A stretch of 62,998 nucleotides of DNA, counting the filler, from Collodictyon triciliatum (taxonomy: Eukaryota), in assembly GCA_043381765.1 (NCBI GenBank). It is 7 parts of 7 records of this genome, joined end to end, with 100 filler letters (N's around TTAATTAATTAA, not from the genome) between each part and the next. Parts side by side here need not be neighbours in the genome. Positions count along the whole stretch, not along the records: positions 38,972 to 48,599 come from JBHJMP010002935.1; 6 more parts are not named here. One strand, given 5' to 3'. This document shows, piece by piece, positions 96-58,546 of the stretch (within the stretch, counting starts at the first letter, position 1; each line of letters opens with the position of its first letter). Under the pieces are notes generated by a model. It searched no databases. It saw only the letters and a list, made by a program, of their open reading frames with translations, and had not been told where the DNA came from. Made by a program: the position numbers and the translations under genes.

Positions 96-3000
96 ATCCT
101 TGGGGTGCTCTTGGGTGTATATTGCTTGCTTTTTGTCGCGGCAATTGCTCGGTATGCTTATTCACTTCTTCACAAATGCTGCACCGCAAAAGACCAGTCG
201 TCATATAGTCAAGTATTTTCATACTCTTATTTTCTCATAATTTATAGGCATCAAACTTAGAATCATATCACACAAAAAATCGAAGTTCAAAGGCAATTTT
301 CCTTTATAGGTGGCGCTTCATCATTTGGGACCTCATGCATCCGTTCTTGTGATGGCTCTCCAAGTTGTGTATCCTTTTGGTGTTATACTAGCATATCATA
401 TCAGTTTGTATTTCCTTAAAGCTATCACAAATTCGTGTGTATGATGGATTTAAAGAAAGTGTCCAGCCCTGGGATACACAAAGTACAAATTGTGTATCTG
501 TCTTATTGATTTCATATTTAACTGCGCAGTCATCAAGCAAAACATGGAAAAAGTGATAGTCCAGCTTGCAGATAGCAATTCGGACATGATTGGTCCTATT
601 TTCTTGGTTGTTTTGGATGTTTGTAAACTATCAAACCTATCTTTTTTTTTTTTTACGAATGTTAGAGTTGTATTAACCTTTTTGATATTACGCCACATTT
701 CGATCGATTTGAATCATTTTGAGAATCGAAGAGATTAAAAATAAAAGGCAAGATAAGGAAATAATACCGATAACCCACTGATTCGAAGCAATCAAAGGCT
801 GCCGTGATTATCCCTCTTTGTATGGTCCCAAAAGTTGACTCTCTGAAGCAAGTATCGTTCTTTACTATTTTGAGCGCCTTTCTGATTGTTGTTGTCGTAT
901 TTGGCAAATGCATCGCCTCTGACGAATTCAAACAACTCAAATGGTCCGAAGTCGACCAGGTTTTTTTTTTTTTTGAGATTTTATAAAATATTCATCGAAA
1001 ACACAATCGTAGTTCGTATATAATAACAAATCTTACGCAATTAACCAGATTTTTTTAATTCAGTATCAATTCAACTCCGAGTTTTTTATTGCCCTGTCAA
1101 TTATCATATTCTCCTTCAATTGTAGCAGTCAGGTAACATCATATATATATTCAATTATTAGACATATGGTAATTCAAATCGTCGATGTAGTTCTTTACAC
1201 ACACACAGTGTGATTTAAAGTAATCACAGCTTAGAGCGTCGGCAAACACATCCGATTTGCGAATACTAATGTCCACGATAGTTTATATCTATCTATGCAG
1301 AGCTAGATAAGCCGACCTCCGATGCGACTGCAGAGAAGCTAGTCGTGTTTCCTATTGTATTCTCTTTGTGTAAGCCGTTTAAACACCTTAGCTCTGTGTA
1401 GAATGACTCTCAAGTGATTCGGTTATTCTGATCGTCTTCATTACATGATTTGTTCTTCTAGTCCTGTACTGCGTCATTGGAATGTTTGGCTACTTGCAGT
1501 TCCGAGGTTTTTGCACATTCCCAATGAAATTCATATAAATGTACCAGCATTTTCACAATGAATGCCGAATCTCTTCATGTTACAATTCCTTGCTATATGA
1601 ATTATGTAAAATAATGACTATATATTTCTTCCCTAGACGATGTTACAGACAATGTCCTTGCTGCATTTCCTGACGAAAAGGATGCATTAATACGTAAGAT
1701 AGATGAAGATAATCATCATCTTTGTATTTCTCTGGAAAAGGACTTTTTTCAAAACTTTTATTCTCAGAATTTTTAATCTAGAAAAGAAAAGAAAAAAGAA
1801 AACGGCAGAATTTTATTATTGATAAGCCCAATATACTGAACCCTTATGAAGTCCTGGCTAGAGTTGCATACAGCTTCATATTGGTCTTTTCGTGCCCAAT
1901 AATTTATCAACCTCTTCGTCAATCGATTGAGAAACTGATTGTACTTTTCAAACGGGGAAATCCTATTCAATATCTGCAGGTAGTTCTTTTCGTGGAAAAC
2001 AAAGGGGAAAATTGAAACAAGAAATAATGATAGTAATGATAATAATGAATATGATAATCACAATAAATATAATCATAATAAAATAAAAATAAATTTTTTT
2101 GCCACATTGAAGTGAAAAATAACGTGGTTGAGGTAGCTGCTTTTTAAAATCTGATTTGCATAATATATTTTATTGAGTAGTTTATTTTTCATGTTCCTTG
2201 ATATACTTTAGATTTTTCTTTCTTTTTTCTTCTAGTATATGATATTGAGCGTAAAGGAGAAGAATATGGAACAAAGAGCTTATGAAAATCCTTTGAATCT
2301 CACCACATCATTCGATGAAAAATTACTTGCAAGTTAGAAAACACAAGTTCGCTCTATTTTTTGTTCATGAAAATTAATAAATAAATGAGTAATGATTATC
2401 ATAGGAGACAGCCATCAATCATTCAAACTCAACACGTGTTATGGTTGATGTATCCTTTCGATTCAAACTGGTGGAAGCAATCGCTGTCATATCAGTGGCA
2501 TGTTTGGCATCCATCTTTGCCAAAAGTCTGCGACAGGTGATTTCGTTATTTATTTATTCATTCATTTATTCATTCTTCGAGCAGAATTTCTCTTCACCTT
2601 TTCGTTCCACGTGATTCTCCCATCTTCGTCTTCATTCTTAACTCCTTTTTTTTTTTTTTTCCTTTTTTTTTTGGGAAGGGGGGATTATTATGTTTTGTGT
2701 CATGAATTATTTTAGTTCAATCTGTTTTAATCAAAGCTGGCCACCGAAGCAGAACCAATGTGATTTCATTCCCTTTTACCCAACAAGATTAAAACGAAAG
2801 CTATATTTTCTCTGTCATTTCTCAGGTTTTTGCAATTATCGGAGCGCTCGGAGCATCCACACTGTGCTATACTCTCCCTGGTCTGATGTACCTGAGAACA
2901 ATGCCGCAGGTAGAATGATATTGCAATAACATACACTCTGCTGCATCAAACGAGAAGACTCACATGGATGCAAACAAACTCACATGACCGAGTAAAACAT

Positions 3001-3367: not shown

Positions 3368-6300
3368 TTAACCACACTGAAGACAATCAACCACGGCACA
3401 ATATCCTGCACTTCCTTCGGCGTTCCTTTTAATCTTGATTTCCTTTCCTTTTTCTTTTTTTCTTCTTGTGGCTTTTCGTTTGGCGATTCTTTCGAATGGC
3501 TGTGCCTTTGGTTTCCTTTGCGCCTGCTCGTCAACGACCTCGCCTCGGTTTACCACTCCATAGACGCAGCATTTTGCCAGTCAGAAAATCCTCGCAAGTC
3601 CGTGTCGGTAAATACCCTGAAAACAGGCTTTTGCTCTTGTGCTTGCGCTTGCAACTCCTTTTCCAGTCGCTCCTTGAGTCCTATTAAAGGATAGCGGGGT
3701 GGATTAGTAACGAGTGCAGAGGAACAAAGACGCACACGAAAATGTCCGGGCATATCCTGGATTTTCGGTGTTGGGTTTTGCATTATTCTGGCAGTGTGCT
3801 TCACAGCCATGTGTTATACCGGGCAATCTCGCGAAGCCGCCTTTAAGGACGATGTAGGGGTCTTTGCATCGGGCAGTTATGTCAAATGCCTTCCTGTAGA
3901 AGTTGCCGATAAAGTCGCACAGCCCCTCCCCAAGGTTCTTGCTGCCTCGGTTGAAAAGAATCTCTGGTGTTTCCAGAGCCTCAGAGTGAACTTGGATATA
4001 ATCTGGCGTGTTGGGTGACCCGAAAATTATTGGCAGCGGTTTCGTTTTTCTTTCTTCCTCTGGATCCAACATAACTTTGCAAAGCCTGGAATGAATAAAG
4101 TTAGTTTAACATTACATATTTATTGATTTACATGTCTACTGATTGATTGATTGATTGATTGGTTGGTTGGTTGGTTGGTTGGTTGGTTGGTTGTTTGTTT
4201 GTTTGTTTGTTTGTTTGTTTGTTTGTTTGTTTGTTTGTTTGTTTGTTTGTTTGTTTGCATCAGTCGTCTATAAAGTCGATTGAATTTTTGTGGTTGCCAT
4301 GTTCAAACTGTGATTTTTGTTTCTCCTCATCATTATTTATCAGACGAGAAAGAAAAAAAAAAGAGAAAGGAATGATAATTGAAATCAAACTTTTGTTTAA
4401 TCTCGTCGGCGACAAAATACAGTTTGGATTTCGATCCAACGAGCATATTCGAAGCCTGCAGGCTGTCCAGAAGAGCATTTGTGAGCTGTTCGGAACCAAA
4501 TTGGCGGATTTCAGTGTGAGGTACTCTTCCCTCGCCTACAAAACCAGAAATCTATACACAAAATTAAACATAATAATAATAATAAAATAAAATAAAATAA
4601 ATATAAAAATAATAAAAATTATGCTTACGATAAAAATAATAAAAATAATAGTTAAAAGATTCAACAAGGCGCACATCTTCATATGGAAAGAGGTAAGCAC
4701 CAGAAGGAAATGATAGAGCACATGACTGATAAACTCCACACTAAACATACTTCAAGTGTCTTTCCCATGGAAACAAGCATTCCAGTTTTTCCATAAAGCT
4801 TTTCAGGCATGAATTCGTCCTGACATTTGAAAATAACTTGAGCAACTTTCAATCGTCTTCGGTAAAATTGTTCTAAATAATCCTTCTTTTGGGTGTACAT
4901 CGAACGGCTGCAGACGACCACCAACTATGTTGTTTGTTGAAAGGAAAGAAAATCACACATTTGTGTATAGAGGCAGTCTCATGCCAATTAACTTACGTGG
5001 AAAAAAGAAAGCATCATGCATGTATTAAAGCAGAGTTCAAATTCAATTAATTTGAGTTTACTATTTTGTCTGTTGGATCAATCTTGATGATTCTTTGAAA
5101 CATATGAGAGAAATACTCTTCCATGAGGTCATTGTCCAATGAACTGCCACCCAATTCCACGATGTACTTGTGTGAGTGCCCGAATTGAAGAACCTAGAAC
5201 ATGAATGCATGTTACTGACAATAAACAAGCATACAAACAGTGTATTCTTTTCTTTTCATTTTACATTTAAATATGAGATTCTATTAGTATAATTTCCATA
5301 TGAGACTGTTTATGCAGCGAAGGATTGCAATTATTTGAATGATAACGATAATCTTAAAAATGGAGAAAACAACGAGTGTTGCCAATAAGATTACATTTTT
5401 TAGGGCATCAAATCCGTATGCTTTGAGTCCACCTCCGAGATTGTCATTGGAGATAATAGCTGGAATAACAAAGGGATATTTGTGAATACCTCGAATTCCA
5501 CAACGGATGTTGATGTACCCCTGATCAAGGACAATGATACTATCCTCTCTACTATGAATAGTATGAGGTTGATGTTTAGACATTACATCAGGGTGAACAG
5601 GTGACAGGAAGTACAGTGCCCGCTTGTGAAAATATTAAACTTGTGTTACGATGTGGTTGCGTTAACCATTTATTCTGAACTTATGTAGGTTAGATGGAAA
5701 CAAACTTGGAATTTAGTAGGCGAGGAATACGGACTGCATCGCTGCTAAACTTTGAATTTGGGGTAATCATCTCATTAGAGAAAGGAATCTGTTAGGGAAC
5801 TGAAATTAGACTAAATAGAATATATTCATAGAATAGTGGCTGTCGAGTAGAACGTGCAGGACGCCAAAAAGTGACTCAGAACAAATAGAACATCTCCCAG
5901 AAATTGACGAGGAAAAAAATATGACCAAGGGATGTGTTGATATGATACTGAACAGTGACCTTTTTTGGCATGAATGCCTCCGGCAAAAGTTCAAAGGAAG
6001 TTGATCTCAAATCTGTCGGTATAATTCATTGAATGAATGAATGCAATTTCGTGTTACCGGAGAAAATAATCATCACCTCTCCAGCTGGGGGAGTTCAATG
6101 CATATGATTTTCAGTGAGTTCAACATTATAGAAACAAAAACAAAAAAGCTATACAATTGTCTAATTCGGCGCTGATTCCAACAAAACCCGAAGTTAATCG
6201 AGTGAGATGAACGGCTTGGATAGCACCCTGGATTTTTCGGACCCAGCTTTCAAAGCTGGCTTTGTCATAGGCCATTAACTGATAAACCTGAATAATCACC

Positions 6301-9649: not shown

Positions 9650-9749
9650 NNNNNNNNNNNNNNNNNNNNNNNNNNNNNNNNNNNNNNNNNNNNTTAATTA
9701 ATTAANNNNNNNNNNNNNNNNNNNNNNNNNNNNNNNNNNNNNNNNNNNN
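9650..9749. other. Artificial scaffold linker; identical linkers at 19398-19497, 29136-29235, 38872-38971, 48600-48699 and 58327-58426
   Basis: 44 N + TTAATTAATTAA (stops in all six frames) + 44 N. Segment lengths are 9649, 9648, 9638, 9636, 9628 and 9627. Confidence 0.98.
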
Positions 9750-19394: not shown

Positions 19395-19497
19395 CAANNN
19401 NNNNNNNNNNNNNNNNNNNNNNNNNNNNNNNNNNNNNNNNNTTAATTAATTAANNNNNNNNNNNNNNNNNNNNNNNNNNNNNNNNNNNNNNNNNNNN

Positions 19498-29135: not shown

Positions 29136-29235
29136 NNNNNNNNNNNNNNNNNNNNNNNNNNNNNNNNNNNNNNNNNNNNTTAATTAATTAANNNNNNNNN
29201 NNNNNNNNNNNNNNNNNNNNNNNNNNNNNNNNNNN

Positions 29236-32906: not shown

Positions 32907-35742
32907 ATGATGAACAAGTATACAGGATTGGCTATCATCGTAACAGGTTAGCAATACAAACGGCATCATATAGCATTGTTTCCATTATATATCGTGTTGC
33001 AATATGATGACCTATGACATCAGCATTCATGAAGCAAATTTTCAAACTGTAGCATTGGTACTTGAGAGCCAAGTAATCAATGTCAAAGGACAAGATGATT
33101 TCGTGACTCGAACACTAGTTGGCCCTGGTTCTGTGTGCAGCGTTGCTGTCACTCCTGATGGTTCGAAAATTGTCTCTGGAGGTGGAGATTATTATATTCC
33201 AGATTGGACAGTAAAAATATGGAATCTTTCTGACGGTTCTTTGATTCGCACCCTGACTGGTCATACTGGTTCTGTGTGCAGCGTTGCTCTCACTCCTGAC
33301 GGTTCACAAGTTGTTTCTGGAAGCTATGATAGAACAATCAAAATCTGGAATCTTTCTAATGGAGCTTTGATTCGTACACTGATTGGTCATACTTATTCGG
33401 TTTACAGCGTTGCTGTTACTCCTGATGGCTCAAAAATTGTGTCTGGAGGTTATGATCAAACAATCAAAATCTGGAATCTTTCTGATGGAGCCTTGATTCG
33501 CGTATTGATTGGACATCGTTGGTATGTTTACAGTGTTGCTCTCACTCCTGATGGCTCAAAAATTGTTTCTGGAAGCAGGGATAATACAATCAAAGTTTGG
33601 AATCTTTCTGATGGAGCCTTGATTCGCACATTGACTGGTCATACTAGCAGTGTTGAAAGTGTTGCTGTTACTCCTGATGGCTCAAAAATTGTTTCTGGAA
33701 GCAGTGATTGGACAGTCAAAGTTTGGAATCTTTCTGATGGAACTTTAATTCGCACATTGACTGGTCATACTGATGATGTTTACAGCGTTGGTGTTACTCC
33801 TGATAGCTCAAAAATTGTTTCTGGAAGCAGTGATTGGACAGTCAAAGTTTGGAATCTTTCTGATGGAACTTTAATTCGCACATTGACTGGTCATACTGGT
33901 AATGTTTACAGCATTGGTGTTACTCCTGATAGCTCAAAAATTGTTTCTGGAAGTGATGATAATACAATCAAAATTTGGAATCTTTCTGATGGAACTTTAA
34001 TTCGCACATTGACTGGTCATANNNNNNNNNNNNNNNNNNNNNNNNNNNNNNNNNNNNNNNNNNNNNNNNNNNNNNNNNNNNNNNNNNNNNNNNNNNNNNN
34101 NNNNNNNNNNNNNNNNNNNNNNNNNNNNNNNNNNNNNNNNNNNNNNNNNNNNNNNNNNNNNNNNNNNNNNNNNNNNNNNNNNNNNNNNNNNNNNNNNNNN
34201 NNNNNNNNNNNNNNNNNNNNNNNNNNNNNNNNNNNNNNNNNNNNNNNNNNNNNNNNNNNNNNNNNNNNNNNNNNNNNNNNNNNNNNNNNNNNNNNNNNNN
34301 NNNNNNNNNNNNNNNNNNNNNNNNNNNNNNNNNNNNNNNNNNNNNNNNNNNNNNNNNNNNNNNNNNNNNNNNNNNNNNNNNNNNNNNNNNNNNNNNNNNN
34401 NNNNNNNNNNNNNNNNNNNNNNNNNNNNNNNNNNNNNNNNNNNNNNNNNNNNNNNNNNNNNNNNNNNNNNNNNNNNNNNNNNNNNNNNNNNNNNNNNNNN
34501 NNNNNNNNNNNNNNNNNNNNNNNNNNNNNNNNNNNNNNNNNNNNNNNNNNNNNNNNNNNNNNNNNNNNNNNNNNNNNNNNNNNNNNNNNNNNNNNNNNNN
34601 NNNNNNNNNNNNNNNNNNNNNNNNNNNNNNNNNNNCAGTCTCAGTCTCAGTCTCAGTCTCAGTCTCAGTCTCAGTCTCAGTCTCAATCCCAATCCCCAAC
34701 ACAAGGTCTGCTTCACTTTATATCATGTTAAATTTTACGTATTATTACATACATGAAAGATTGACGCCGAATTTTTGCTTCTATTTGCACTTAGAATTAC
34801 ATGACCCCCTATTTTTTTTCTAGATGGCGAACATTTCATCGATTTTCATATTGACCGCATCTCTGATTCCTATCAAGTCGACCAAGTTATTTTTACAGAT
34901 GAATTGGTATGGTTTATGCTCTCGAAGCAGGATATGTTCCACTTGATTCTCTCAAACGCAGGCGAGGCTCTTGTTGGGCATAGCCCATACCATTAAGACA
35001 AAAGGTGTTCATCAACTCAAATCTTTTTAGGCTGAGGGACTCAACATAACACGGGTTCAGCTTCGTCCCTTCTACCCCGTAACCTTCGATGGCTACATCT
35101 CCCTATCAATAGCCGTACTTGAAAATGTCGGCTCGCCTGAATCCAGCATGGAAATTGTAGACAAGATATTAAACGCTGCAAGAAAGGGAAGCAAGGTACT
35201 ATGTAAATGTGCACTCTCAAACCTTCTTGTTTCTCCTGTTTTGCCGATTTTTGGCTCTTGTAAAACACATTGAACTCTGTCACACTTGCTTGCACTTATC
35301 GACGACTACCTATATGTGTGCATGTTATAGTTGAATCATTTACAGTATTTCGAACAACTATAGAAATATTATCTGCCCTTTAATCATGTGATGTATCGAA
35401 TAGGTGCTCACCGATCTTAAAGTTATGACCGTCGTTTATGAAGAAGATGTTATTGTTGTGGAGGAGAAAGTAAGTGATAATCTGTTCTGTTACGACTCAC
35501 GCAATTCAATTAGACACTGACACGACTCATAATTTCATATCCAGTCATCAGAGCGCAATCTCGACATCTATATCGGCATTGCTGTTGCAGGAGGCGTTTT
35601 GTTTCTGATAATCTGTGTTGCGCTGGTGAAGATGCGCCATAGAGCGAAGTATCTTTGCAACAAACTGTTCCACTACAAAAATATCCACGCGATGAAATCC
35701 AGCGGTGTCCAGCTTGAGTCTATCAATAGAGACACACTATAA
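32907..35742 (+). CDS. Putative type-I membrane protein: signal peptide, at least 7 near-identical WD40 repeats, (QS)n stalk, juxtamembrane domain, TM helix, short tail; spans an N gap
   Basis: Exon 1 (32907-32946) spliced to 33053 gives MMNKYTGLAIIVTALVLESQVINVKG-QDD. 42-aa repeats LIRTLTGH..V.SVAVTPDGSKIVSG..D.TIKIWNLSDG. After the gap, QSQS..PTQ splices in phase to DGEHFIDF.., then IYIGIAVAGGVLFLIICVALV-KMRHR and stop at 35740-35742. Confidence 0.72.
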
Positions 35743-37153: not shown

Positions 37154-38984
37154 AATAGACAATATGACTTTTTGTTTGATGTTCTATGAATGGCACCCAA
37201 GTATGATAGTCAACTCCAAGCTAGCATTTCAATAGGCGTACCTTTTTAAAACCCTTACAAGATACTTTCCACGAGTCTTCATTCACTGTCTCGGGAACGC
37301 CCAGCGTCGCTCAACATTAACGACACAGTCAAGAGTTTGAAATCGGTCTTTGTGTCATTTTTTTCGTACTGAATAGCAAGGAAAGTTAAACGTCGCTGGC
37401 AAAGACAGAAAGCACCTGCCTCTTGAATTTGAAAACGACTCTGTTGCAGTTGATATCTATGTATTATCCACTGCAATCCATGGAATGCGAGAATTCGGCT
37501 CCTCAAGTTATTTTGGAGTCTCAAAAGGGAATGGGATTCAGTTTTGTGAGCTCAGAATATACTGGGCATTTTGCGTACGATAGTCGACAGGTTTTGGCCT
37601 GGCTCACATCCTAATTCTCCATTCAATCGAAGGCTAGAGTTTCGAGTCGCGAATAGAATTATCCCACCAGCATTCAATTCACACAAATTGTAGGAATATT
37701 ACCTAATCATGATAGAAGTGGATTTTCAGGAGAAAATTTTATGGATTTAATGTGTTTGTACCATGTACATCTAGAACTACTGCCGCTGCTGTTTTTAATG
37801 CTGCAGATAATGATGTCGTAGGTACTGTTTTTGCAATTTTTTGTTAGAATTGTTTGTACAAAACCATTTAATGTTAACTTTGCTGCATCACAAAATCCTT
37901 TAAATATTGTCGCTAATTCAGGAATAATTCACTTACCGAGGGACTATGTTACGTGTGTGAAACTGGATGTGGATTCAATCGTGAGTTGTGGATTGGATTA
38001 ATCTCTGCCAATTTTTGACGCAGTTGGAGGAAAGTTGTAGGCTCGGATATTCAGTCGTCAGGCTCAGGCTTAATGAGTTTGACATTAGGGTTTGATGACC
38101 ATCGACCACAGGTTTTAATTACAGTGTTATTGTTGCATCGCTGTACGACGTCGTCCTCGAAATTCAATCCAACCAGCAGACTTACCGCATAGAATAAAAT
38201 CCTCATTTAAGTAATGGAACCGATTATGATATTCTCATTACTTATGACTTGCGTGTTAGTGTTAGAGTGTGTGTGGAAATATGCATCGACCATTTGAAAC
38301 AAAGTTGGTGTTATGAAGGAGAGTAGAGTTCAAGAAAGAAAGACTTGCTGCACGCTGGAGCTTAGTTGGCACAAAAGTGGGGAGGGGGTAGTTTTGCCCT
38401 CTTCATTATATACCACATCTTTACCGATCTTGAAAAGTTTGAAAAGTGGATAAAAAGGAAAATAAGAAAAGAAGGCAATTTTCTGAACCATTTTGACCAA
38501 GGATAATGATATATGGATATTGTAGAGGGGAAGGGACTCATCAACCACTCGCTTTTGGGTAAAATATTATAAAATTGATTTGTTGTATTTGTTTTTACTA
38601 CATACAAAAAAAAAAAATTACAAACGTTTAAGTATTTTCGTGTGAAGACTATATCAGCTATCGCTGCTTATTCTGCCACAATAATGGTTTTGAAACTGAG
38701 TTTAAGGAAGGAGAAGCTGCGGGCTACACAGTAAAATTGGGAGACTGGGGTGAACTGACAATATAGATGAAGAAAATAGGTTATTGGGAAACAAGACATA
38801 TCTACTGCTGTTCAGGCATATGCTTACCACGGACAAACCAGTACAGATTATAAAAAGCCGATGCAAGCGCGNNNNNNNNNNNNNNNNNNNNNNNNNNNNN
38901 NNNNNNNNNNNNNNNTTAATTAATTAANNNNNNNNNNNNNNNNNNNNNNNNNNNNNNNNNNNNNNNNNNNNTTTTTTTTTTTTT

Positions 38985-39031
<47 letters not shown>

Positions 39032-39182
39032 GGAGTGATTTCCACAAGTAAAGTTAGTATTAAAAATTCGGTCATATAAGTTAATTTTTTTAATTCACAT
39101 TCATGTTTTTATTTACTCTAATATATTTGATAGGATCACTTAACCATTCGTGCCATCTTAACGGGATGATAATTTGTTTAAG

Positions 39183-43331
<4,149 letters not shown>

Positions 43332-44730
43332 TAAACAAAATAAACAAAATAAAAAATAGTCCGGTTGGAAAAAAAAAAGTTATTTACTGCCGCACACCCA
43401 TTTGTGTTGAAAATTTTACTTTGGAGCTCTCCTCGTACGAAAAGTAACCCTAGCGAATACCCCTTCCAACGCATTACATAAGGGAATCAAATAGATGAAG
43501 AAACTCTGCGAGCCTTCGGGAAGCTGGTCTTTTAATCGAATGTATATGCATAGTAGATGGAGGCCTCACTTCTTAGCAACCGGTGGTCACGGGGTTGAAC
43601 TGAGCTGGATTACGCAGCACCCGCAACTGCACCCTTAAAGCAAATCCACAAAAGGTCATGTTCGTGAATTCAGCCGCTTTCTCCGAACGTGAAATGGGTC
43701 TCCAGGTCTCGATCCGGTGAATTATAAAAATCTCGGAAAANNNNNNNNNNNNNNNNNNNNNNNNNNNNNNNNNNNNNNNNNNNNNNNNNNNNNNNNNNNN
43801 NNNNNNNNNNNNNNNNNNNNNNNNNNNNNNNNNNNNNNNNNNNNNNNNNNNNNNNNNNNNNNNNNNNNNNNNNNNNNNNNNNNNNNNNNNNNNNNNNNNN
43901 NNNNNNNNNNNNNNNNNNNNNNNNNNNNNNNNNNNNNNNNNNNNNNNNNNNNNNNNNNNNNNNNNNNNNNNNNNNNNNNNNNNNNNNNNNNNNNNNNNNN
44001 NNNNNNNNNNNNNNNNNNNNNNNNNNNNNNNNNNNNNNNNNNNNNNNNNNNNNNNNNNNNNNNNNNNNNNNNNNNNNNNNNNNNNNNNNNNNNNNNNNNN
44101 NNNNNNNNNNNNNNNNNNNNNNNNNNNNNNNNNNNNNNNNNNNNNNNNNNNNNNNNNNNNNNNNNNNNNNNNNNNNNNNNNNNNNNNNNNNNNNNNNNNN
44201 NNNNNNNNNNNNNNNNNNNNNNNNNNNNNNNNNNNNNNNNNNNNNNNNNNNNNNNNNNNNNNNNNNNNNNNNNNNNNNNNNNNNNNNNNNNNNNNNNNNN
44301 NNNNNNNNNNNNNNNNNNNNNNNNNNNNNNNNNNNNNNNNNNNNNNNNNNNNNNNNNNNNNNNNNNNNNNNNNNNNNNNNNNNNNNNNNNNNNNNNNNNN
44401 NNNNNNNNNNNNNNNNNNNNNNNNNNNNNNNNNNNNNNNNNNNNNNNNNNNNNNNNNNNNNNNNNNNNNNNNNNNNNNNNNNNNNNNNNNNNNNNNNNNN
44501 NNNNNNNNNNNNNNNNNNNNNNNNNNNNNNNNNNNNNNNNNNNNNNNNNNNNNNNNNNNNNNNNNNNNNNNNNNNNNNNNNNNNNNNNNNNNNNNNNNNN
44601 NNNNNNNNNNNNNAGTCTGCGAACTCGTTGAACCAATGCAAGCTGCTCAGCTGGATTTAAAATTGAATAAAACATTACTACCAAATAATTATGTGCGTTT
44701 GTTTTTAAATACTAATATAAATATTAAAGT

Positions 44731-45252
44731 ATGCCGGAAATTCCAGAAAATATTAAAAAAGAATTGCCCAAAGATTTCGATGAAGTTTGGGAGGTTGTTG
44801 AAATCGGAGACATTCAAAAGAATGATTATATTTCCTATTTCCCCAAGCCCCGCAAATATCAATCGCGTGACTCTGAAACAAAGCCCCAGCTAGTGAAAGG
44901 CGGATATGTTACATTCACCCCAGACGAAGAGAAAAAAGAAATTCGCGGCACAAAAGAAAATGTAATTGGTTTGCGCAGTTTCAAATCAAAGTGGTCTATT
45001 AGCGAATCAGATGTTTATTTCTTTTGCAAGTCAAAGAAAGACTCGAAAGAGATTTTGAAAAAAGGAATTGCGAAAGCCAATGAGACAAAGACCGAGGTAC
45101 GCAAACGCAAGGCCGAAATACTCAAGGACGAAATCAAGGAGGCGGAAAAGATGAGCGTCAATAAAGAGGCCATTGAGGAGGCTGTAAAGGCCGCCGCTGA
45201 GACTGATTCTCCAATTAAAAAAAAAAGAGGCAGACCAAAGAAGAAGGTCTAA
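44731..45252 (+). CDS. Hypothetical Lys/Glu-rich protein with a C-terminal AT-hook (element ORF)
   Basis: Intact 173-aa ORF ending KKKRGRPKKKV. Its stop overlaps the integrase stop at 45249-45252. Confidence 0.8.
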   Translation: MPEIPENIKKELPKDFDEVWEVVEIGDIQKNDYISYFPKPRKYQSRDSETKPQLVKGGYVTFTPDEEKKEIRGTKENVIGLRSFKSKWSISESDVYFFCKSKKDSKEILKKGIAKANETKTEVRKRKAEILKDEIKEAEKMSVNKEAIEEAVKAAAETDSPIKKKRGRPKKKV

Positions 45253-46439
45253 GTTTTATTTCTTCTGGCAGCGCGTTCTGCGCGAGAAGTAGCTTGAGCT
45301 GTCTTTGTCGCCTCATTGAACTTGAATAAATCTTTCTCCTCTAAACCAGAGGCCCCTTTCATTTTTCGAGGCTTTGCTTCTTTTAAAAATTCATCCAAGT
45401 CGTCTTGCTCTTCAAATTCTTTGACGAGTTGTTTTTTGGGTTTATGTGTTTTGCCTTTGGTGACTGTGTCGTCGATCAGAAGCAAGTCAGAGCGCTTGAA
45501 ATTTGTCTTTGCGATTTTCGCATTGGTTGATTCGACTTTGACATAAGGCACAGCCCATTCGCTGGTTGGTTTGCTTTCTTTGATGACTGTATATATTTCA
45601 TTACTCCAACGGGGCAAGTACCCCTTTGAAGTTTTCAGTTTTTGTTTTATATTCACAGGCAGGTCAGTCTTCTCAAGAAGTATTCTGACTTTGTCTCCAG
45701 GTTGGAATGGTTTGTCCTTGCCGGCATTCTGATTCTTTTTGCCTGCATATTTTTTTTGGTTCTCGATAATTTGCTCCTGGTACTTTGGCAAAACCGCAAC
45801 ATCAGGCACAACCTTTGTTGTTTCATTTTTGACAAGATTAATAGAGTCTGTGAATTCTCTGAGATGGGGGATTGGGTCGTCGCCAGTCTTTTGCAGATAG
45901 CCGTAGAGTGCGCGCTTGATTGTGCCATTGGCTCTTTCGACAAAGGCATTGGTCGTGGGATTACCTGGAGAACTTTTCACGCTTTTAATATTATTACTTT
46001 CTAAAAGTTTTGGAACTTCACCTTCAAATTCTTTTCCATTGTCTGACTGAATGGTCGTGACCAATTTATATTCTTTAATAAACTTTTCTAATTGCTGGGA
46101 TACTTCTTTGCTGGAATTTGCCTTCAGTGGATAGGCCCACAGCTTTCGCGTGAATACATCAACACAAGTCAGAATATATTTCGCGTCTTCTGATTCCAGG
46201 TTTCCTACATCAATCGTGTCTATCTGAATGTACCCTGGTTTGAATCGCATCATGGTTGCTTGTTTGCGTTCTGACTTTCTCGCTTGGAGAGTTTGGTAGT
46301 CTGGTTGCTGTTTGAGAAATTCTTCGACAGTCTTTTTTTTAATTCCAAATTCTTTGACCAGCGCCCAAAGTCCGGCAACTGAATTTGTGTGCTTGGGTGC
46401 ATTATAATACTTTTCCAATATTTTCATTTCGTCAGTCAT
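45249..46439 (-). CDS. Retroviral-like (rve) DDE integrase, Polinton/Maverick c-integrase type
   Basis: QIDTID, YILTCVDVFTR, IQSDNGKEF and AFVERANGTIK (D,D-35-E); C-terminal FQPGDKVRI..KGYLPRWSNEIYTV; no chromodomain visible. Confidence 0.93.
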   Translation of the reverse strand: MTDEMKILEKYYNAPKHTNSVAGLWALVKEFGIKKKTVEEFLKQQPDYQTLQARKSERKQATMMRFKPGYIQIDTIDVGNLESEDAKYILTCVDVFTRKLWAYPLKANSSKEVSQQLEKFIKEYKLVTTIQSDNGKEFEGEVPKLLESNNIKSVKSSPGNPTTNAFVERANGTIKRALYGYLQKTGDDPIPHLREFTDSINLVKNETTKVVPDVAVLPKYQEQIIENQKKYAGKKNQNAGKDKPFQPGDKVRILLEKTDLPVNIKQKLKTSKGYLPRWSNEIYTVIKESKPTSEWAVPYVKVESTNAKIAKTNFKRSDLLLIDDTVTKGKTHKPKKQLVKEFEEQDDLDEFLKEAKPRKMKGASGLEEKDLFKFNEATKTAQATSRAERAARRNKT

Positions 46440-46476
46440 AATTTAATTTATAAAATATTATTTATTTAAAAACGCG

Positions 46477-46717
46477 CGCCCCCTCCAACAACTTTCCGCC
46501 TCCGCTTGATGATCGAGTGGTGGAGCTTGAGCCCTTAGCCCCCGGGCTCCAATCGCCTATATTATTCTATTTTATTTTTTTAAAATTTTAAAATTTTAAA
46601 ATAAAAAAAGAAGATATATAAAAGGATTTGGGCAGGAAAAATTCTTAGCCATTGACCATCAATCTCAACATTAAGAAAATGAATTCAGCGGATGCGGAAA
46701 ATTGTTGGAGGGGGGCG
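46477..46717. promoter_or_regulatory. Nested inverted-repeat (fold-back) region between the integrase and the Zn-binding ORF
   Basis: Outer arms at 46477-46506 and 46687-46717, plus inner stems and a central palindrome TTTAAAATTTTAAAATTTTAAA. Function is inferred. Confidence 0.6.
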
Positions 46718-46720
46718 ATT

Positions 46721-47179
46721 TTATTTTGGTATGCGGCGGCAGACTGAACACTTTGAATGTTTAGGTTCGCATTCTTGATTGCATTTATCACAAAGTCCTT
46801 TTCGACATTTATTGCATCTATTGACTATTCGATTCAAATGCGGCTCGTGGCATATGTCGCAGTTGCGGCCGCTGGCACATCTGTCTGGCAAAAATTGTTT
46901 TTTACAACAGCTACCCAATGTTATAATTTTTTTGCCGTCGGTAATCCAATGATTGTATTTAATCCAGTGTGTGCACACACATTCAGATGTAGGAGGGGGC
47001 AGTTCAAGGTGTAAGAACATCTCTGGATTTGATTTGATACATAGAATGTGATACGATAATCCATCACTGGCATCATCTCCACCAATGTACCACCAACCAT
47101 TTAAGTCTGCTGGTACCATTTTATATTTGCTGTAAAGTCCATCGATAAAATTTTTGTGCAATTCGTAATCAGCTTCCAT
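46721..47179 (-). CDS. Cys-rich putative Zn-binding protein, large-DNA-virus-like (element ORF)
   Basis: CVCTHWIKY...LGSCCKKQF motif plus four CxxC pairs; intact 152-aa intronless ORF. Confidence 0.8.
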   Translation of the reverse strand: MEADYELHKNFIDGLYSKYKMVPADLNGWWYIGGDDASDGLSYHILCIKSNPEMFLHLELPPPTSECVCTHWIKYNHWITDGKKIITLGSCCKKQFLPDRCASGRNCDICHEPHLNRIVNRCNKCRKGLCDKCNQECEPKHSKCSVCRRIPK

Positions 47180-47228
47180 TATGAAAAAACTATTTCGACA
47201 ACTTTAAATTTAAAATCAATTTTTGTTT

Positions 47229-47555
47229 TCACCACAAGAAATGCCACGCCCAGAATCCCGCACTCCTTGGGTCATCTATGTTATCTTTGGCGTGGCGCTT
47301 TCTGTATTGTGCCCGTTGTTTTGAATCATTCGTATCTAATGATTTATAAAATCCGAATTGATCTTTGTAGTGTTTGTATCGTCTGTCTCCAAAATGCACA
47401 GGGCTTGATAGCATTCTAACAAAGTCTCCCTTAATTTCTGGGTGGGGTTGTTTGGGTCCCGCAAGCCAGGCTGTATATTTTTTATTTTTATTTAGCGACG
47501 GTTTAATAACATAAGTCTGCCCTTTCACCTTGACTTCTTTTTTAAATTCACTCAT
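47229..47555 (-). CDS. Tlr6F-like (DUF5754-like) small basic protein (element ORF)
   Basis: KPS..KNKKY...VHFGDRRYKHY...R..YRKRH...SAGFWAWHFLW matches the motif pattern I recall for this virus/PLV family. Confidence 0.75.
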   Translation of the reverse strand: MSEFKKEVKVKGQTYVIKPSLNKNKKYTAWLAGPKQPHPEIKGDFVRMLSSPVHFGDRRYKHYKDQFGFYKSLDTNDSKQRAQYRKRHAKDNIDDPRSAGFWAWHFLW

Positions 47556-47730
47556 ACCATTTGCGTAGAAAATATTCTAGTATATTCTAGAACATTGCAC
47601 ACAGATGTTGCCAAATCTGGAAATTATCCATATATAGATGGATGCAGGGGTATATAAAGGCGCAGGAAATTAAAAGACGGAATAAACTGATACTTTTATA
47701 TTCTAGGTATATAGAATATAAAAGTATCAC

Positions 47731-48313
47731 ATAAGGTCTCATTTGCAACCACCGAACCATGAGGTAGCTTCACTTTGCAGGATATCGGGGCAGACTCGCA
47801 GCAGAAGCAACACACCGTTTTTGTGTTTTCACCTTCGATGGGGACTTCAAATATTGGCTTGGTCGCATCTTGCACGCGAAACAGGAGAACGTCAAGTTTA
47901 TCCTTCGGGTCGACCTTCCAAGACAATAAAATTCTGGCCTTAAGCGAGTACTTTATGTTCCCAGATTCTCCTTTGAATGAGGATGGAAGAGTGTTATCTG
48001 TTGGAAAGGTGAAGTAAAAAGGAAGTCGATATTCTCCAGCAGTAATCTCGCTCGTTCCGCCAGTCAAACTGGGTTTCCAAACGTCTTGTTTCTGCTCATA
48101 AAAAGTTTTCCTCTCGCTGTGTGATGAGTCATTATCGATGCGTACGAGAGTATCGACTTTTCCAGTAAAGCGAACCAACACGCCGAAGGGACTAATTGGG
48201 CTGGAGACAGACAAACAAATAAATCCTCTAAGAGGTTGGTTCGAAAAATGCGCTTGGGTTGAAGGAGACTCTGTCTCGATCTTGACTTTGACCCCACCAG
48301 TTAGGTATTCCAT
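47731..48313 (-). CDS. Alpha-arrestin-domain protein, first exon; probable continuation at about 44614-44686 and into the gap
   Basis: VRFTGKVDT, ITAGEYRLPFYFTFP..LPSSFKGESGNIKYSLKA, CCFCCESAPISCKVKLP..VVANETL. A downstream LALVQRVR resembles the arrestin-C strand. Confidence 0.85.
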
Positions 48314-49074
48314 CTGCGCAAGTTCTATTGGCTTGTTTTTCGAGGGTTATTTTCAATAGTCTGATACTCGTGTTTGCTTAGTTTTCTTTGCTTTTGCTGT
48401 TTTTTCTTCTTTTTCTTCTTTTTTTTCTTTTTTTCATTTTTCATTTTTCATTATTTGTAATTTTTTGTAATTTTTTGTCCATTTTTTTAGTTGTCTCATC
48501 GTTTTATTTTATTTTTCGTACTTTTCTTCATTCTTGGTTCTTTTTTGTTTAAGTTTTCGTTTTCCATCCTTTTTTTTTTTTTTTTTTTTTTCTTTCTTTN
48601 NNNNNNNNNNNNNNNNNNNNNNNNNNNNNNNNNNNNNNNNNNNTTAATTAATTAANNNNNNNNNNNNNNNNNNNNNNNNNNNNNNNNNNNNNNNNNNNNG
48701 AAGAAAAGAAGAAAAGAAGAAAAGAAGAAAAGAAGAAAAGAAGAAAAGAAGAAAAGAAGAAAAGAAGAAAAGAAGAAAAGAAGAAAAGAAGAAAAGAAAA
48801 ACCAAAACAAAAACATGAGAAGCGGAATGAAGTTTTGCTGTAGCTGACTGAAAAAATTAAATAAGGAAATACATAATCCATTTCAATTGGCGCTCACATT
48901 TATAAACATATTTGATTCGAAGAAATGTTTTAATTTAGTATTAAAATTTGTTACCAATAAACCTTTTTTTTAAATGATATGATATGTAATTGAATTCCAA
49001 AGTTTCACTTTTAATTTCATGCTTTACCACAAACAATATCCGCACGCTCACCAAACAACATGTTATGCACAAAG

Positions 49075-58224: not shown

Positions 58225-58546
58225 AAACACAAACACACAAACACACAAACACACAAACACACAAACACACAAACACACAAACACACAAACACACAAACAC
58301 ACAAACACACAAACACACAAACACACNNNNNNNNNNNNNNNNNNNNNNNNNNNNNNNNNNNNNNNNNNNNTTAATTAATTAANNNNNNNNNNNNNNNNNN
58401 NNNNNNNNNNNNNNNNNNNNNNNNNNATTGTATTGTATTGTATTGTATTGTATTGTATTGTATTGTATTGTATTGTATTGTATTGTATTGTATTGTATTG
58501 TATTGTATTGTATTGTATTGTATTGTATTGTATTGTATTGTATTGT
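58225..58546. repeat. (ACAAACAC)n and (TATTG)n tracts on either side of a linker, on two different scaffold ends
   Basis: Direct reading of the sequence. Confidence 0.95.

Follow-up and report, generated by a model that had tools for sequence, protein, structure and literature searches.

Does a block of four virus-like genes, confined to some 3 kb of a protist assembly, represent a complete and compact mobile element, or the visible part of something larger? The block lies in a stretch of 62,998 nucleotides (filler included; "the window" denotes this whole stretch) from the assembly GCA_043381765.1 of Collodictyon triciliatum, on the scaffold JBHJMP010002935.1. A sequence-only reading had taken it for a self-contained element of about 3 kb, related to Polintons and Polinton-like viruses (PLVs) and bounded on both sides by host arrestin sequence. 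Our analysis upholds the affinity, which the gene set and its relatives support, and not the size: the four open reading frames (ORFs; Table 1) are probably the integrase-side end of a larger PLV integrated in or beside a host alpha-arrestin gene, and the apparent size of 3 kb is an effect of the assembly and not a property of the element family.

A gap in the scaffold adjoins the left side of the gene block

The ORFs themselves are as first described, i.e. intact, intronless and tightly packed: all four run from ATG to stop without internal stops (44731-47555), ORF1 and the integrase gene converge with a 4-nt overlap, and the remaining spacers measure 281 nt and 49 nt. Their GC content is 0.39-0.41, compared with 0.34 for the adjoining spliced host gene region. 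The left end of the block is another matter. A run of 873 N stands 117 nt upstream of ORF1, leaving a visible left edge at 44614, and the start proposed for a compact element (44651) lies a mere 38 nt from this run. Since the run abuts the element, the element's left end is absent from the sequence, and a length of 3 kb cannot be read from it. We favour the view that the N-runs are true scaffold gaps and not masking, considering what borders the other long runs of the window (516-690 N), namely A-rich low complexity, WD40 repeats or a hexamer microsatellite.

What, then, lies beyond the gap edge in close relatives? The integrase alignment served as query against metagenome contigs and retrieved 278 relatives among 588 pattern matches; 80 of the 278 were used. 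The best match, a 4321-bp contig (L001), is 93.7% identical to window positions 46339-44614 over 1727 nt; the alignment reaches the first base after the N-run, and from there it is 52 nt to the stop codon of a 759-aa ORF. This ORF matches DUF5906 (E 1.3e-14) and, weakly, PriCT_2, and the profile of its family matches solved chains named 'Primase' (E 1.1e-7); because of these three matches we read it as a primase/superfamily-3 helicase. With a replication gene just past the gap edge in so close a relative, the notion of a self-contained unit without replication genes is not supported. A second contig, L003, shows the same order of integrase, ORF1 and helicase. Against L001, the ratio of non-synonymous to synonymous substitutions (dN/dS) comes to 0.17 in ORF1 and to 0.21 in the integrase gene, so that both genes appear to be under purifying selection.

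Two oddities of these contigs deserve mention in their own right. In L003 (90-788) the integrase ends at 232 aa, without its C-terminal third, while ORF1 and the helicase follow in the usual order; this is a deleted or decaying copy. In L001, positions 1-136 and 4197-4319 repeat inner parts of its own integrase and helicase genes, out of order, as would be expected either of a rearranged copy or of an assembly or amplification artefact.

A further link between the genes comes from contig fingerprints, by which we mean the number of contigs and the longest contig recorded for each exact protein, the contigs themselves being unread. The exact integrase (P0001), the exact ORF1 (P0057) and a 782-aa helicase that is 87% identical to that of L001 (P0049) are each recorded on 4 contigs, the longest of 17,215 bp. 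Common contig sizes likewise pair an integrase with a helicase at 9411 bp (P0017 and P0051) and at 4655 bp (P0002 and P0054), an integrase with an ORF3 homologue at 5865 bp (P0041 and P0071), and the exact ORF4 with an 84%-identical ORF3 at 987 bp (P0059/P0067). Circumstantially, these fingerprints agree with one order, in which the helicase gene and ORF1 point towards the integrase gene, and the integrase gene, ORF3 and ORF4 run the opposite way. Variants of the lineage occur in metagenome runs of 10 studies, mostly from freshwater, lakes and the subsurface. Some of the variants look mosaic: P0002, an integrase 89% identical to that of the window, is paired with a helicase (P0054) only ~40% identical to that of L001, and within the 987 bp of P0059/P0067 an exact ORF4 accompanies an ORF3 that is just 84% identical.

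Gene content points to Polinton-like viruses

The integrase matches Pfam rve (E 2.9e-13; 50.4 bits, with a cutoff of 32.6) as well as rve_3, and the full DDE triad claimed for it is borne out by its family: D74 and D133 are invariant in all 18 aligned relatives (18/18), at least 90% of which also retain E168. Among solved structures, the best relatives of the family profile are the integrases of PFV, Ty3, HTLV and HIV (best E 1.6e-16). In prokaryote genome contigs, the search returned only distant IS-like or stray matches, with at most 34% identity over the core, and in the 'phages' collection one weak transposase match and nothing else.

ORF4 had been called Tlr6F-like, and the name can be kept in the sense of DUF5754-like. 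Its match to Pfam DUF5754 lies below the cutoff (E 0.0046; 17.4 bits against 27.4), one of its five homologues (P0046) has a precomputed match to PF19058, and 29 of its 30 Atlas neighbours fall in DUF5754 clusters of viral origin (top score 0.95); taken together, these three lines make it likely that ORF4 encodes a divergent member of the DUF5754/Tlr6F family. One study equates Tlr6f with PF19058-DUF5754 (PMC12220804); according to another, almost every PLV has a conserved Tlr6f, as do several virophages and many giant viruses (PMC4642659). Relatives of ORF4, sharing 28-36% identity with it, were located on contigs of 23.8, 25.2, 25.8 and 129 kb in IMG/VR, and none was found in the 'phages' collection.

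ORF3, first described as a viral-type Zn protein, is Cys-rich and belongs to a family of 551 representatives at E<=1e-3 (174 at E<=1e-10), whose shared region is covered by no Pfam family in the 24 members scanned; these carry only extra zinc-ribbon, GRF or DUF5710 domains. Its AlphaFold2 model (pLDDT 93.5) resembles uncharacterised proteins of a pithovirus, an iridovirus and an entomopoxvirus in Foldseek (E 3.8e-8 to 1.7e-6), which upholds the likeness in fold to proteins of giant viruses. Among solved structures there was no match by which to name the fold (best Foldseek E 1.8; best VIA Z 2.4), and the sole hint at the level of sequence is a weak FYVE/RING-like profile match (E 2.3e-4).

ORF1 matched no Pfam family. 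Its Atlas scores stay below 0.9 and its TM values below 0.45, which makes them leads only, and we therefore give it no family name. The protein ends in a basic RGRP stretch, which is AT-hook-like. Homologues of ORF1 stand tail-to-tail with the integrase gene in L001-L004 (4 of the 94 loci searched), and the family was found solely alongside this integrase family.

In IMG/VR, neither single-protein scans (integrase, ORF4, helicase) nor the helicase alignment found a close relative, and genomic context was for this reason taken from distant ones. The nearest integrases there share 24-30% identity (14 of 88 pattern matches) and lie on contigs of 16-25 kb; over residues 30-336, the integrase of the window is 29% identical to that of a PLV-like contig, L081 (E 2e-28). 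A Pox_A32 packaging ATPase is present in 4 of the 4 annotated integrase loci (L081-L084), which variously carry a sub-threshold double-jelly-roll match, tyrosine recombinases, a D5-like/DUF5906 helicase and GIY-YIG nucleases. Relatives of ORF3, at 27 loci, lie both on giant-virus bins and on contigs of 13-25 kb. In two of these loci (L125 and L129) a DUF5906 helicase of ~760 aa is directly followed by the ORF3-like gene, with A32 on the same contig, and in two others (L133 and L136) ORF3-like and ORF4-like genes occur together.

Considering the rve integrase, the Tlr6F-like protein, the superfamily-3 helicase of the close relatives and the A32 ATPase of the distant ones, this gene set is that of PLVs. 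Three accessory genes that are typical of PLVs are all found, Tlr6F as the likely divergent member ORF4, the integrase as the rve gene, and the primase-superfamily-3 helicase in L001. Further likenesses are the position of the integrase gene near one end, the compact, intronless genes, the insertion in a eukaryote, the placement of the helicase gene beside that of the integrase in close relatives, and the occurrence of distant relatives of the integrase, helicase, ORF3 and ORF4 genes on contigs of 13-25 kb that also encode an A32 ATPase. For one cluster of rve-bearing PLVs, a published study places the helicase gene immediately upstream of the integrase gene (PMC12220804). On the other hand, no major capsid protein, minor capsid protein or packaging ATPase has been seen in the DNA of the element's family read so far, the integrase has no Chromo domain, unlike its nearest IMG/VR relatives, and the ORF1 family turned up only beside this integrase family. 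The lineage is thus marked by an rve integrase without chromodomain, a DUF5906 primase-helicase and a private ORF1 family; PLVs as a kind are already known.

Other known systems fit less closely. With Polintons/Mavericks the element shares a retrovirus-type DDE integrase and integration into eukaryote DNA; unlike in them, the replication gene seen in its relatives encodes a primase-helicase and not a protein-primed PolB, of which there is no sign in the visible element or in L001 but which the hidden part might still encode, and its visible part holds no protease, capsid genes or terminal inverted repeats (TIRs). Tlr1 of Tetrahymena likewise combines an rve integrase with a small Tlr6F-type protein, according to PMC4642659, which assigns to Tlr1 a PIF1-like superfamily-1 helicase, whereas the helicase here is of the DUF5906/superfamily-3 type.

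A whole virus, a truncated copy or a small replicon?

How much of a PLV is actually present? We took as the yardstick a size of about 14-40 kb with TIRs and, when integrated by an rve integrase, target-site duplications (TSDs) of 5-6 bp; for rve-bearing PLVs of protists, PMC12220804 gives TIRs of hundreds of bp and TSDs of the same 5-6 bp. Measured against this, the 17,215-bp contig fingerprint is suggestive only, and the left end of this copy is behind the gap.

Several observations weigh against a larger integrated virus. Neither the visible 3.1 kb nor L001-L004 showed a capsid or packaging gene, and the longest family DNA read is L001, at 4.3 kb. No TIR was found: the right end has no inverted match in the left flank or in any other visible sequence. 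The helicase family had no relative in IMG/VR, by protein scan or by alignment, and the window holds no helicase remnant (tblastn, E<=0.01). The evidence of the fingerprints for a single gene order is circumstantial. The collection has the exact ORF4 solely on the 987-bp contig and has no exact ORF3, so that the linkage of ORF3 and ORF4 to the integrase comes down to the window itself and one fingerprint. Finally, a helicase gene of 2.35 kb cannot fit into 873 bp, and if the gap estimate is right the copy is therefore truncated.

This last point leads to the idea that the copy is left-truncated or internally deleted, a dead-end fragment of a PLV with only ORF1, integrase, ORF3 and ORF4 and at most a stub of the helicase gene, which would give substance to the recent deletion derivative that had been envisaged. 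The length of the run is in line with the other gaps of 516-690 N, which look like estimated scaffold gaps; no helicase match is found left of the gap, the stretch from 43250 to 44613 has to accommodate the missing arrestin C lobe as well, and in L003, with its 232-aa integrase, a deleted relative does exist. Yet the block has kept its four ORFs intact, contig fingerprints link the exact ORF1 and integrase to a full helicase, and gap sizes in short-read scaffolds are unreliable beside repeats. The contig break at the gap edge, moreover, is not in low-complexity sequence, and would fit a repeat such as a multi-copy helicase gene. With the low dN/dS values of ORF1 and the integrase added to the evidence for a whole copy, we lean, if only by a little, towards this copy being whole and not left-truncated; a dead-end fragment is a tentative alternative that we regard as rather unlikely.

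Could the family instead have no capsid at all? One could picture an integrating replicon of ~5.5-6 kb, composed of primase-helicase, ORF1, integrase, ORF3 and the Tlr6F-like gene and spread by a helper virus. Many relatives do lie on contigs of just 4.2-4.8 kb, the helicase family is absent from IMG/VR, and the family has so far shown no capsid gene. However, short contigs are the norm in these collections, genes of the family also occur on contigs of 9.4-17.2 kb, and the distant relatives with readable context all lie on contigs of 13-25 kb that include a packaging ATPase gene. We thus hold such a replicon to be improbable, and are equally sceptical of its fuller version, i.e. a PLV-derived element widespread in freshwater and subsurface metagenomes that would resemble a transpoviron with an integrase of its own and travel in the particles of another virus. 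The minimal, helper-dependent element of the sequence-only reading found no positive support. Were a small replicon real, it would share with transpovirons a size of a few kb, a helicase, a zinc-type protein and the lack of a capsid. Transpovirons are not known to carry an integrase; the element, by contrast, has one, and this copy sits in host DNA. Transpovirons are described as linear plasmids of giant viruses (PMC3671162).

The right junction and the host arrestin gene

On the right, the visible sequence passes from the element into a host alpha-arrestin gene on the opposite side of a short junction. Residues 21-193 of the arrestin ORF match a solved arrestin-domain protein of 469 aa (chain 7usy_J) over its residues 42-220 (E 5e-7). 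Because this homology stops at ORF residue 193, the gene seems to be cut at ~47735, just inside the C lobe, and the right flank holds the N lobe and ~50 C-lobe residues only, not the two lobes of an entire arrestin.

The other half of the claimed arrestin frame did not materialise. Arrestin_N is matched on the right side only; left of the gap, no arrestin was found in 20 ORF pieces searched with Pfam, nor in 2 pieces searched against PDB sequences, and a 55-codon ORF running out of the gap (43576-43740, minus strand) gave no arrestin signal. A minus-strand arrestin C-lobe exon at ~42722-42805 was considered and rejected, as Pfam and PDB searches with it came back empty. This stretch presumably resembles the antisense of a branching-enzyme exon; its plus-strand ORF had no match in the PDB search. 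The left flank belongs to a 1,4-alpha-glucan branching enzyme gene, as shown by two exons: that at 40256-40507 by its likeness to human GBE1 chains (E 8e-23), and that at 42353-42496 by its alignment with a 706-aa branching enzyme over residues 566-605 (E 1.5e-5). The lost C lobe of the arrestin may lie in the gap.

A perfect palindrome of 18+6+18 nt (47688-47729) marks the border of element and arrestin, its right arm lying inside the last codons of the arrestin ORF. Separately, a direct repeat matching at 17 of 18 nt (42518-42535 and 47717-47734, the latter in a palindrome arm) was set aside as chance-level in AT-rich DNA; its left copy falls in the branching-enzyme gene region.

Could the border be no more than an assembly chimera, in which the palindrome is the point where free viral DNA and a host arrestin contig were fused, without any integration? 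A palindrome at the junction would suit such a join. Of the 20 listed runs that share words with the window, 4 have no organism record and 2 rows of small share have coded organism names; where an organism is recorded the runs are metagenomes, with a maximum share of 0.53, and none of the 20 is an RNA run. The 987-bp contig with the exact ORF4, in turn, must end within ~150 bp of the ORF3-ORF4 block, and therefore before the arrestin. On the other side of the argument, the contig is unbroken from ORF1 into the arrestin, an integrase is among the element's own products, and rve-bearing PLVs as a rule integrate into the genomes of protists (PMC12220804). We consider a chimera a doubtful explanation, with a small chance of being right. 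Integrated rve PLVs are described for cryptophytes and other protists (PMC12220804; PMC4642659).

How might the element work, and why does it matter?

Returning to an integrated PLV as the preferred account, we would propose the following. The family would order its genes as a primase-helicase of about 780 aa and ORF1 in one direction, facing the rve integrase, ORF3 and the Tlr6F-like gene in the other. The DDE integrase would insert a linear double-stranded DNA genome, here in or beside the alpha-arrestin gene and cutting that gene at the start of the C lobe, whilst the primase-helicase would start genome replication; ORF1, with its basic RGRP tail, and ORF3, with its zinc-type Cys clusters, could serve as DNA-binding accessory proteins. 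The left part, from the helicase gene on, would either be hidden in the 873-N gap or be lost from this copy.

If this account holds, the locus adds one more integrated PLV in a freshwater eukaryote, and puts on record a PLV lineage, without close relatives in IMG/VR, in which an rve integrase occurs together with a DUF5906 primase-helicase and an ORF1 family as yet unnamed. It also illustrates how N-runs can make part of an element pass for a compact whole. A small capsid-less replicon, only if true, would bear on how virus-derived elements shed their capsids.

Table 1. Features of the gene block and its flanks, in window positions
Feature	Position	Strand	Remarks
1,4-alpha-glucan branching enzyme gene, spliced, host	38972..43250	+	left of gap
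N-run	43741..44613		873 N; hides left continuation
Spacer before ORF1	44614..44730	+	matches L001 1838-1723
ORF1	44731..45252	+	173 aa; N-terminal domain of no named family and basic RGRP tail, AT-hook-like
rve DDE integrase	45249..46439	-	396 aa; Pfam rve and rve_3
Inverted repeat pair	46479-46506 / 46687-46714		28-nt arms, AT-rich 180-nt spacer; between integrase start and ORF3 stop
ORF3	46721..47179	-	152 aa; Cys-rich, large virus-associated family
ORF4	47229..47555	-	108 aa; Tlr6F/DUF5754-like
Right end of element / arrestin junction	47556..47735	.	approximate end; holds palindrome
Alpha-arrestin N lobe and first C-lobe strands, host	47696..48313	-	Arrestin_N E 4.2e-17

Minor features of the element, its relatives and the window

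Two features inside the block stand apart from its coding content. The 28-nt inverted repeat is GC-rich, with 2 matches found when 3 mismatches were allowed and 0 expected, and its arms differ by 2 mismatches; no further copy was found in the window or in the loci collected. Two possible origins are a small insertion nested in the element and a hairpin with a regulatory role. The second is the motif AAAATTGA, which we take to be the early promoter motif of giant viruses. It occurs at 44659-44666 (plus strand) and 47216-47223 (minus strand), sense-oriented and about 30-70 nt upstream of ORF1 and of ORF3, and the copy before ORF1 is kept in L001 (1786-1793, minus strand). As a promoter signal it was rejected, considering that the window shows no enrichment (13 matches, with 15.8 expected).

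Among the distant relatives, the 13-kb IMG/VR contig L125 encodes a telomere resolvase of the ResT/TelK type at 162-1550 (E 2.6e-17), together with a DUF5906 helicase, an ORF3-like gene, a GIY-YIG gene and an A32 ATPase, which suggests a PLV-like genome with hairpin ends.

The window as a whole is a composite. Six linkers of the form N44-TTAATTAATTAA-N44 (9650-9749, 19398-19497, 29136-29235, 38872-38971, 48600-48699 and 58327-58426) part it into pieces that shrink steadily (9649, 9648, 9638, 9636, 9628 and 9627 bp); the window is thus a series of separate scaffolds sorted by length, in which adjacency across linkers is not real. The element's scaffold spans 38972-48599 and is ended by the linker at 48600-48699, so that the myosin gene after 48699 belongs to another scaffold and is no neighbour of the element. 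On yet another piece, an intronless ORF with seven WD40 repeats (32974-34021) enters a gap of 614 N, with a (CAGTCT)n microsatellite beyond it (34636-34700).

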